A DNA stretch of 64,000 nt from Nanobdellati archaeon (GCA_019429005.1 JAHYJR010000001.1:195232-259231); one strand, 5' to 3'. Counted from the stretch's first letter, positions 49,124-49,462 are shown. A program made the numbers and translations. Notes: a model not told the origin generated them from the letters alone.

Positions 49124-49462
49124 GATTATTTTTATTTTTATTATTATTTTTATTATTTTTATTATTATTTTTATTATTATTTTTATTATTATTTTTATTA
49201 TTATTTTTATTATTTTTATTATTATTATTTTTATTATTTTTATTATTATTATTTTTATTATTATTATTTTTATTATTATTATTTTTATTATTATTTTTAT
49301 TTTTTTTATTATTTTTATTATTATTATTTTTATTATTTTTATTATTTTTATTATTTTTATTATTATTATTTTTATTATTTTTATTATTATTATTATTATT
49401 ATTATTATTATTATTATTATTATTATTATTATTATTATTATTATTATTATTATTATTATTTA
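49124..49462. repeat. About 340-bp AT-only microsatellite ((TTTTTATTATT..)n grading into (ATT)about 30) upstream of the radical SAM gene
   Basis: Seen directly. Causes the spurious poly-Y/F and poly-I N-terminal extensions of ORFs 49052.. and 49098.. in the track. Confidence 0.9.

Follow-up and report, generated by a model that had tools for sequence, protein, structure and literature searches.

ATT-class microsatellites beside two core promoters of a DPANN archaeon, a probable product of replication slippage

Bacterial promoter contingency loci carry short-unit repeats within tens of nucleotides of a promoter; in H. influenzae, a (TA)n repeat lies between the -10 and -35 elements of hifA/hifB, and in N. 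meningitidis, a (TAAA)n repeat lies upstream of nadA. In M. gallisepticum, a GAA repeat is positioned ~40 nt upstream of the transcription start site of vlhA (PMC6258824), while phase-variable loci and SSR-based variation are unsurveyed in archaea (PMC11868660). A further precedent comes from a CPR Gracilibacterium, an ultra-small, AT-rich, uncultivated symbiont in which a long coding repeat of 9-mer units, translated into a PTD repeat, displays read-level variation and complicates assembly (PMC6851277). The same paper cites the idea of a microsatellite life cycle, in which a growing array collects interruptions that in turn dampen further slippage (PMC6851277). Archaeal RNA polymerase is also known to terminate at runs of five to six T residues (PMC2253867), with U-tracts acting together with aCPSF1 (PMC8716108).

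The locus described here shares features with each of these systems. Like the bacterial contingency loci, it places short-unit repeats within tens of nucleotides of a promoter in a small AT-rich genome; one array resembles vlhA in its trinucleotide unit and ~-40 position, ending 37 nt before the ATG, and the other resembles hifA/hifB in lying within a divergent spacer. Unlike them, it is expected to be served by TBP/TFB rather than sigma-70, it involves no multigene family, conserved flanks or surface antigen, and its longer array is mostly interrupted; nor are repeats found at the homologues, so that the locus lacks the gene family with conserved flanks that marks a vlhA-type switch, which is active at one repeat number only. 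Like the Gracilibacterium locus, it is a long tandem repeat in an AT-rich genome of the ultra-small, uncultivated kind, it poses a problem for assembly, and the same reasoning on interruptions and slippage applies to it, but the longer array is non-coding. Finally, it resembles archaeal oligo-T terminators in having sense-strand T5 or longer (T5+) runs downstream of a gene in a genome that avoids them inside genes, but known terminators have one to a few T-runs, whereas here there are 23 in 340 bp, all within a microsatellite, and termination is only predicted.

The DNA analysed is a stretch of 64,000 nucleotides, hereafter the window, with a GC content of ~30% (A+T ~70%). The radical SAM protein encoded in it matches MBW6451334.1 at 100% identity, a protein encoded on a single 287-kb contig of a DPANN group archaeon MAG. 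Neighboring genes are archaeal, including those for both subunits (A and B) of Topo VI, a tRNA-splicing endonuclease, a class I Trp/Tyr-tRNA synthetase, a CDP-alcohol phosphatidyltransferase and GlyRS, and the best relatives of the GlyRS belong to Woesearchaeota/Nanoarchaeota-type MAGs with at most 79% identity. Exact-protein look-ups with the radical SAM protein, GlyRS and P0001 returned no second copy of the genome, and a scan of metagenomes using the radical SAM sequence likewise uncovered no relatives. The host, a DPANN archaeon, is represented by one MAG. The features relevant to the two arrays are as follows, in order of position:

26568-26585, minus strand: third ATT-class array, (ATT)6, encoding NNNNNN within a LeuRS-like gene at 25812-28691 (LeuRS assigned by eye)
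46273-46842, minus strand: CDP-alcohol phosphatidyltransferase gene (archaetidylinositol-phosphate-synthase-like), divergent from glyS
46884-46891, plus strand: TATA box of glyS, TTTATAAA, conserved and palindromic, inside the 17-mer TATTTTTATAAATCTAT
46903-46935, plus strand: pure (TTA)11, in the spacer that separates glyS from the divergent CDP-alcohol phosphatidyltransferase gene
46960-46976, plus strand: glyS leader TTATACAAGGTTTTCCAA, with Shine-Dalgarno-like AAGGT, common to the relatives L002-L004
46977-48506, plus strand: glyS, glycine-tRNA ligase (TIGR00389, 506 bits against a cutoff of 243)
48507-49010, plus strand: GNAT (Acetyltransf_3) pseudogene carrying three in-frame stops, immediately 5' of the 340-bp tract
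49018-49087, plus strand: four T5-T7 runs, terminator-like, between the end of the pseudogene and the tract
49125-49464, plus strand: compound microsatellite of 112 in-phase triplets, 88 ATT and 24 TTT
49383-49460, plus strand: pure (ATT)26, 78 bp, the uninterrupted, promoter-proximal end of the tract
49468-49477, plus strand: candidate TATA box of the radical SAM gene, TATAAAAAAA (PWM score 4.13), centered ~-30 from the ATG
49502-50350, plus strand: radical SAM gene, 282 aa, with CxxxCxxC near the N-terminus

The initial annotation of this DNA had reported an A/T-only tract of ~340 bp at 49124-49462, about 40 bp before the radical SAM start, and the tract is real: the exact A/T-only run covers the 340 bp of 49125-49464, is T-rich on the plus strand, and stops 37 nt short of the radical SAM ATG at 49502. 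At ~70% A+T, the chance of such a run is ~0.7^340, or ~1e-53 per position. TRF called a repeat at 49121-49460 with a period of 9, 37.8 copies, 90% matches, 0% indels and a score of 505. Read in triplets from its pure end, the 340-bp tract holds no indels and no triplets other than ATT and TTT, and these are organized as (ATT)1-4 TTT higher-order units of 6-15 bp, mainly 9, 12 or 15 bp. The lengths of the ATT runs between successive TTTs are 2, 1, 3, 2, 3, 3, 3, 3, 2, 4, 2, 4, 4, 4, 3, 1, (0), 2, 4, 2, 2, 2, 4 and 2, followed by 26, and identical units occur in blocks (3,3,3,3; 4,4,4; 2,2,2). The 11-mer tandem repeats mentioned alongside the trinucleotides in that annotation were not found; the intervals between T5 runs in the tract are 6, 9, 12 or 15 bp (mean 11.3 bp), and this spacing is the probable source of the impression.

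Each of the 24 interruptions replaces an A with a T (ATT to TTT) and creates a run of T5 or longer. This one-sidedness may be explained by duplication of higher-order units, since a single event could then be copied many times, or alternatively it may reflect selection for T5 runs. The restriction to ATT and TTT units, the repeated blocks and the pure end match the life-cycle idea for microsatellites: the older 5' part (~260 bp) would have acquired A-to-T interruptions and then been amplified as 9-, 12- and 15-bp higher-order units, leaving an old array stabilized by its interruptions joined to a young, pure (ATT)26 end. This pure end is probably the part of the tract most prone to changes in length.

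Several other structural properties were considered. Over 300 bp, the tract has the lowest duplex stability anywhere in the window (z=6.5). The T-rich strand, with a minimum free energy of -3.5 kcal/mol, folds worse than its own shuffles (z=+2.4), and hairpin or cruciform potential was therefore rejected. Intrinsic bending through phased T5 runs was likewise rejected, as the best of 12 tested periods, 11 bp, gave p=0.0125 and was not significant after correction. No direct repeats flank the tract, and insertion of a mobile element was discounted on these grounds.

To place the arrays in context, simple-sequence repeats were counted across the window. Only three perfect SSRs with units of 2-6 nt and a length of at least 15 bp were present, all of the ATT class, compared to 0.54 expected under a second-order Markov model, and AAT-class arrays of at least four units numbered 9 (7 of them inside the 340-bp tract) compared to 0.4 expected. 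Both the 340-bp tract and (TTA)11 consist of tandem copies of a 1-6-nt unit beyond chance, and are microsatellites in this sense. The third array encodes six asparagines in the LeuRS-like gene, indicating that the tendency toward ATT expansion acts in coding DNA as well. A tandem repeat of a different kind, with a 21-bp unit, 7.1 copies and 88% matches, was observed at 6101-6249 within ORF 5571-6623 (plus strand), which encodes a 350-aa protein without assigned function; the repeat specifies NNVTTP(N/A) heptapeptides. The adjoining 6624-8485 comprises ~1.8 kb without an ORF of at least 90 aa, unusual for a dense DPANN genome; its AT skew is very strong (-0.46 across 7001-8000), and several short repeats rich in T and G occur at 6964-7063.

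For comparison, 80 related DPANN glyS loci totaling 1.19 Mb, with GC contents of 27-65%, were examined. Nothing comparable was present in this set, where the longest trinucleotide array has 5 units and the longest A/T-only run 52 bp; the absence of any array of at least 7 units from these 1.19 Mb agrees with the earlier remark that such repeats are rare in prokaryotic intergenic DNA. The 17 related loci below 33% GC also held nothing comparable, and AT-richness alone therefore fails to explain ATT expansion in one lineage. Two homologues of the radical SAM protein, AR1 (41% identity) and L087 (42% identity), have repeat-free upstream spacers of 49 and ~500 bp, respectively. Thus, when the homologous loci are compared, as the initial annotation had advised, neither those of the radical SAM gene nor those of glyS carry comparable arrays, and the arrays are lineage-specific rather than a conserved feature of either gene.

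Outside this lineage, the same compound structure proved to be recurrent. An exact 48-mer, (ATTATTATTTTT)x4, was found in 43 metagenome contigs with a flank GC of 17-43%, in A/T-only runs of 48-184 bp, all below the 340 bp observed here. In 13 of the 43 the array lies inside a long ORF, on the A-rich strand, as (KNNN)n, while the other 30 appear intergenic; beside gene 3' ends, the T-rich strand is the sense strand in 6 cases and the A-rich strand in 6. Sampled flanking proteins include Ric8/synembryn, RhoGEF-PH-CNH, collagen repeats and a cytochrome-b5 fusion, implying that several of the carriers are eukaryotes or giant viruses. The 340-bp tract thus resembles the (AAT)n/(ATT)n arrays of AT-rich eukaryotes and giant viruses in its unit, in its compound (ATT)3TTT structure down to the exact 48-mer, and in the combination of a pure core with an interrupted older part. 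It differs from them in residing in a compact DPANN host, in being longer (340 vs 48-184 bp) and non-coding, and in its absence from relatives. The even split in orientation and the mixture of coding and intergenic positions favor a mutational product over an oriented functional element; the compound ATT array is a recurrent mutational product of very AT-rich DNA, without fixed orientation or context.

The perfect triplet phase, and the fact that 13 of the 43 contigs encode the array, also bear on whether the tract might itself be coding, either by extending the radical SAM protein at its N-terminus with poly-Y/F or as poly-N/K on the minus strand. As the initial annotation had anticipated from two stop-free frames, the tract generates artefactual ORFs: a 432-aa ORF at 49052-50350, whose poly-Y/F N-terminus runs in frame into the radical SAM gene, and a 121-aa poly-I/F ORF at 49098-49463. 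On the plus strand, two frames are stop-free and the third has one stop at the 3' edge, and on the minus strand two frames (poly-N/K and poly-I/K) are open within the tract, but both are closed by stops at the tract edges and lack a start codon. The Met at 49502 is also where the radical SAM homologues and the database copy begin, with 278-282 aa and 97-100% coverage, and decay of a triplet repeat by substitution only is enough to account for the phase. With neither a start-bearing ORF of its own nor support from homologues, a coding role for the tract has a negligible probability.

Given that the sequence derives from a single MAG contig, the length or order of the tract could also have been inflated or mis-joined during assembly, possibly through k-mers from the ATT arrays of other organisms. 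The identical 48-mer in 43 unrelated contigs demonstrates that k-mers are in fact shared across organisms, and the tract itself contains repeated k-mers, 5 distinct ones at k=55 and 1 at k=77. However, 77 was the only tested size of at least 77 with a repeated k-mer, and all k-mers of at least 99 were unique, so that the tract is within reach of an assembler with a large k or of 150-nt reads; the irregular internal pattern is also unlike an assembler loop. The genes on both flanks are of DPANN type and match in composition, glyS also neighbors Topo VI in another relative (L008), and the window has two further ATT arrays short enough to be spanned by single reads. An assembly artefact is consequently quite unlikely, although the identical 48-mers of other organisms make the exact length of the tract provisional.

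The GNAT gene directly upstream of the 340-bp tract is a pseudogene on account of its three in-frame stops, leaving ~1 kb (48507-49501) without an intact gene. The last of these stops is a TAA at 48930-48932, where homologous C-termini continue and the downstream sequence is still GNAT-like, making this a dead gene within an otherwise compact genome. In the nearest relative with conserved gene order (L132), comparison of 4870-8159 with 48507-50902 of the window showed an AP-endonuclease-like gene convergent with glyS, and neither the GNAT nor the radical SAM gene was present in this segment. This makes the stretch from the GNAT pseudogene through the tract to the radical SAM gene a lineage-specific rearrangement or acquisition, and the tract would have grown in a relaxed setting beside the dead gene. 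The radical SAM protein matches no curated subfamily. No tRNAs or Rfam families were detected in or near the tract. On the other side of the radical SAM gene, a 354-bp gap at 50351-50704 without an ORF of at least 33 aa, and with no tRNA or Rfam match, separates it from a predicted membrane protein of 65 aa, and farther downstream a tRNA-Phe(GAA) and tRNA-Asn(GTT) pair (51486-51645, minus strand) adjoins the tRNA-splicing endonuclease gene (50892-51455).

The initial annotation had also proposed that slipped-strand mispairing in both tracts could alter promoter spacing. To locate the promoters, a TATA motif model was built from 35 upstream regions of the window, leaving out those of the radical SAM gene and glyS; the model is weak (5.3 bits), but it recovers TTTATAAAAT, the classical archaeal TATA consensus. 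The candidate box TATAAAAAAA has the only score within the top 1% of the window in the 100 nt before the radical SAM ATG, while the best score inside the 340-bp tract is -0.88. The tract stops 3 nt short of this candidate, within the expected BRE position. In the window, TTATAAAA occurs 26 nt before the radical SAM ATG, and in tract-free homologues TTTATAAA occurs at 22 nt (L087) and 21 nt (AR1/L081). In TBP/TFB-dependent transcription the TATA box is centered near -26/-27, and together with the distance of the box from the ATG this geometry predicts a leaderless or near-leaderless radical SAM transcript. Elsewhere in the window, many genes have a GGTGAT-like Shine-Dalgarno sequence and others a TATA box ~25-35 nt before the ATG, so that leadered and leaderless mRNAs appear to be mixed. 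A scan for sigma-70-like promoters found sites at chance level (21 compared to 23.1 expected) and was set aside, the host being archaeal.

The distribution of oligo-T runs is informative in the same regard. Within coding sequences (58 ORFs), sense-strand T5+ runs occur at 2.15 per kb compared to 9.4 per kb for A5+ runs, a 4.4-fold difference, whereas in the 60 nt past stop codons T5+ runs reach 8.9 per kb, a 4-fold enrichment. The 340-bp tract, which follows glyS and the pseudogene, carries 23 T5+ runs on the plus strand and none on the minus strand, and thus has the sequence makeup of archaeal oligo-T terminators, i.e., T5+ on the non-template strand past a gene 3' end. A transcript begun upstream of the tract should accordingly not reach the radical SAM gene. 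Based on this, the scored TATA site and the TATA distances in the homologues, we infer that the radical SAM promoter lies downstream of the 340-bp tract. The initial annotation had itself listed a downstream promoter as evidence against a spacing mechanism, and, with an archaeal host and the best TATA box downstream of the tract, this mechanism is not supported for the radical SAM gene. Instead, the gene would be transcribed from the downstream promoter independently of repeat number.

These runs also raise the possibility that the tract is a selected physical element, either a one-way array of terminators or a melt-prone, protein-excluding region that isolates the radical SAM promoter from read-through from glyS. 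Consistent with this are the confinement of the 23 runs to the plus strand, the avoidance of T5+ runs in genes and their enrichment after stops, the formation of such a run by every interruption, the low duplex stability of the tract, and published evidence for termination at T5-6 runs (PMC2253867) and for U-tracts acting with aCPSF1 (PMC8716108). However, the four T5-T7 runs that already precede the tract make it redundant as a terminator, 340 bp is far beyond what termination needs, and like arrays elsewhere show no orientation preference at gene 3' ends (6:6). In addition, the T5 runs show no significant helical phasing after correction, and the tract is not conserved at homologous loci. 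We therefore regard selection for such an element as unlikely, and, under a slippage origin, the T5+ runs would as a side effect block read-through from glyS and the pseudogene in one direction.

The ease with which the tract should melt, and an MCM gene (by eye) 11 kb away, might alternatively point to the DNA-unwinding element of a replication origin. However, no ORB-like inverted repeats beyond low-complexity matches flank the tract, no Orc1/Cdc6-like ORF was recognized by eye among the 58 ORFs of the window, no switch in skew or gene orientation is centered on the tract, and the nearest syntenic relative lacks such an element. Of the DNA-unwinding element, ORB and orc1/cdc6 combination that marks archaeal origins, only the first has a counterpart here, and an origin is highly improbable.

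For glyS, the history of the array can be followed more closely. The reported (ATT)11 about 40 bp before this gene corresponds to (TTA)11, which ends 41 nt before the ATG at 46977, and the TIGR00389 match confirms the identity of the gene. The GlyRS of L132 is 79% identical, and the gene order there is a hypothetical gene, Trp/TyrRS, CDP-alcohol phosphatidyltransferase and then divergent glyS. Since global alignments of these low-complexity spacers were unreliable, they were replaced by a longest-shared-word test against shuffles, with verified ATGs. The exact 17-mer TATTTTTATAAATCTAT, at 46880-46896 of the window, is common to L132, and none of 300 shuffles reached this length (maximum 14); the extended ungapped stretch is identical at 30 of 39 positions. 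The distance from the end of the TATA box to the ATG is 85 nt in the window compared to 33-38 nt in six relatives, TTTATAAA being 38 nt from the ATG in L132 and 33-35 nt in the other five. Immediately beyond this stretch the sequence is GCTTAATTATTAAG in L132 and GCTTA(TTA)n in the window, and at the site of the array L132 has only the seed TTAATTATTAA. The conserved box and leader, the longer spacing and the seed in L132 together imply that the array arose by expansion of a TTA/ATT seed between the TATA box and the leader. Growth of (TTA)11 from a TTAATTATTAA-like seed would have moved the glyS box from ~35 to 85 nt before the ATG. In three relatives (L002, L003 and L004), (TA)n-rich runs lie directly upstream of the glyS TATA box, with (TA)6 in L004 at ~9945-9965, and these short runs show that the position is generally prone to simple-sequence formation.

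The archaeal pre-initiation complex fixes the start site at a set distance from the TATA box. Repeat number should consequently alter the length of the glyS leader and not the geometry of the promoter. Two arrangements can be envisaged. The old box may still fire, in which case the predicted start falls near 46914, within the array, and the leader would be ~60 nt long with UUA repeats at its 5' end; (TTA)11 contains no T5 runs, and transcription through the array is thus plausible. Alternatively, the weaker TATA-like site TATTAATAAT at 46943-46952 (score 3.05), which is proximal to the gene, may have taken over. The glyS box was also observed to score on the minus strand, as TTTATAAAAA (5.56), centered -44.5 from the start of the CDP-alcohol phosphatidyltransferase gene; as a perfect palindrome with a good score in this orientation, TTTATAAA could serve both divergent genes. 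The proposed spacing mechanism is unsupported for glyS as well: although the TATA box and the ATG flank the array, the start is set by the box, and as a housekeeping gene glyS is a poor candidate for on/off switching.

A broader version of the proposal is that both arrays are contingency or expression-variation loci, in which slippage alters array length and thereby tunes transcription or translation, through leader length and start-site context in the case of glyS, and through sequence and topology beside the BRE/TATA in the case of the radical SAM gene. Pure arrays such as (ATT)26 and (TTA)11 are long enough for hypermutability in the organisms in which this has been studied. Also in favor are the ends of both arrays 37-41 nt before an ATG, the location of the glyS array between a conserved TATA box and the ATG, the bacterial positional analogue in the vlhA GAA repeat (PMC6258824), and the lack of a survey of phase-variable loci in archaea (PMC11868660). 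Against this, the radical SAM TATA box is downstream of its tract, and neither array lies in an ORF or between promoter elements where it would switch expression. To our knowledge, archaeal promoters have no -35/-10 spacer. Neither gene belongs to the surface, restriction-modification or host-interaction classes typical of contingency loci, of which a genome usually has several, glyS being a housekeeping gene and the other encoding an unclassified radical SAM enzyme. Moreover, the arrays are absent from relatives and homologues, and the 5' three quarters of the 340-bp tract are interrupted, which should suppress slippage. Taken together, contingency function is improbable. Of the slipped-strand switch originally proposed, the expectation that the pure (ATT)26 and (TTA)11 arrays slip still stands, while phase variation through promoter spacing is unsupported.

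Based on the data presented above, the preferred explanation, to which we assign a probability of roughly 0.6, is that both tracts are slippage-born, largely neutral ATT-class microsatellites tolerated beside core promoters. According to this model, the ATT/AAT arrays would have grown by replication slippage from A/T-rich, promoter-proximal DNA in an archaeon of ~30% GC, and they would persist because the geometry of the core promoters stays intact. Because both arrays abut or enter core-promoter space with the T-rich strand as the sense strand, their placement could reflect function as well as constraint. At its most speculative, this would be a DPANN lineage with eukaryote-like microsatellite dynamics, whose ATT arrays are the first archaeal SSR expression-variation loci: (TTA)n would set the leader length and start-site context of glyS, and the (ATT)n/T5 array at the radical SAM BRE/TATA would act as a length-variable insulator, giving population-level heterogeneity of expression in an obligate episymbiont. 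We consider this scenario very unlikely.

Long microsatellites are rare in prokaryotes, and the window provides a concrete archaeal example, which is datable in that L132 retains the 11-nt seed, whereas in the window (TTA)11 separates the TATA box of an essential tRNA synthetase gene, glyS, from its start codon. On a practical level, the locus is a warning for gene callers, given the artefactual 432-aa and 121-aa ORFs, and for assemblers, given the k-mers held in common with eukaryotic repeats. If the arrays prove to be monomorphic, they would be an oddity of one genome. If, on the other hand, reads show heterogeneity in array length, the locus would offer an entry to slippage and repair in DPANN archaea, and to the tolerance of archaeal promoters for insertions between the TATA box and the start codon.
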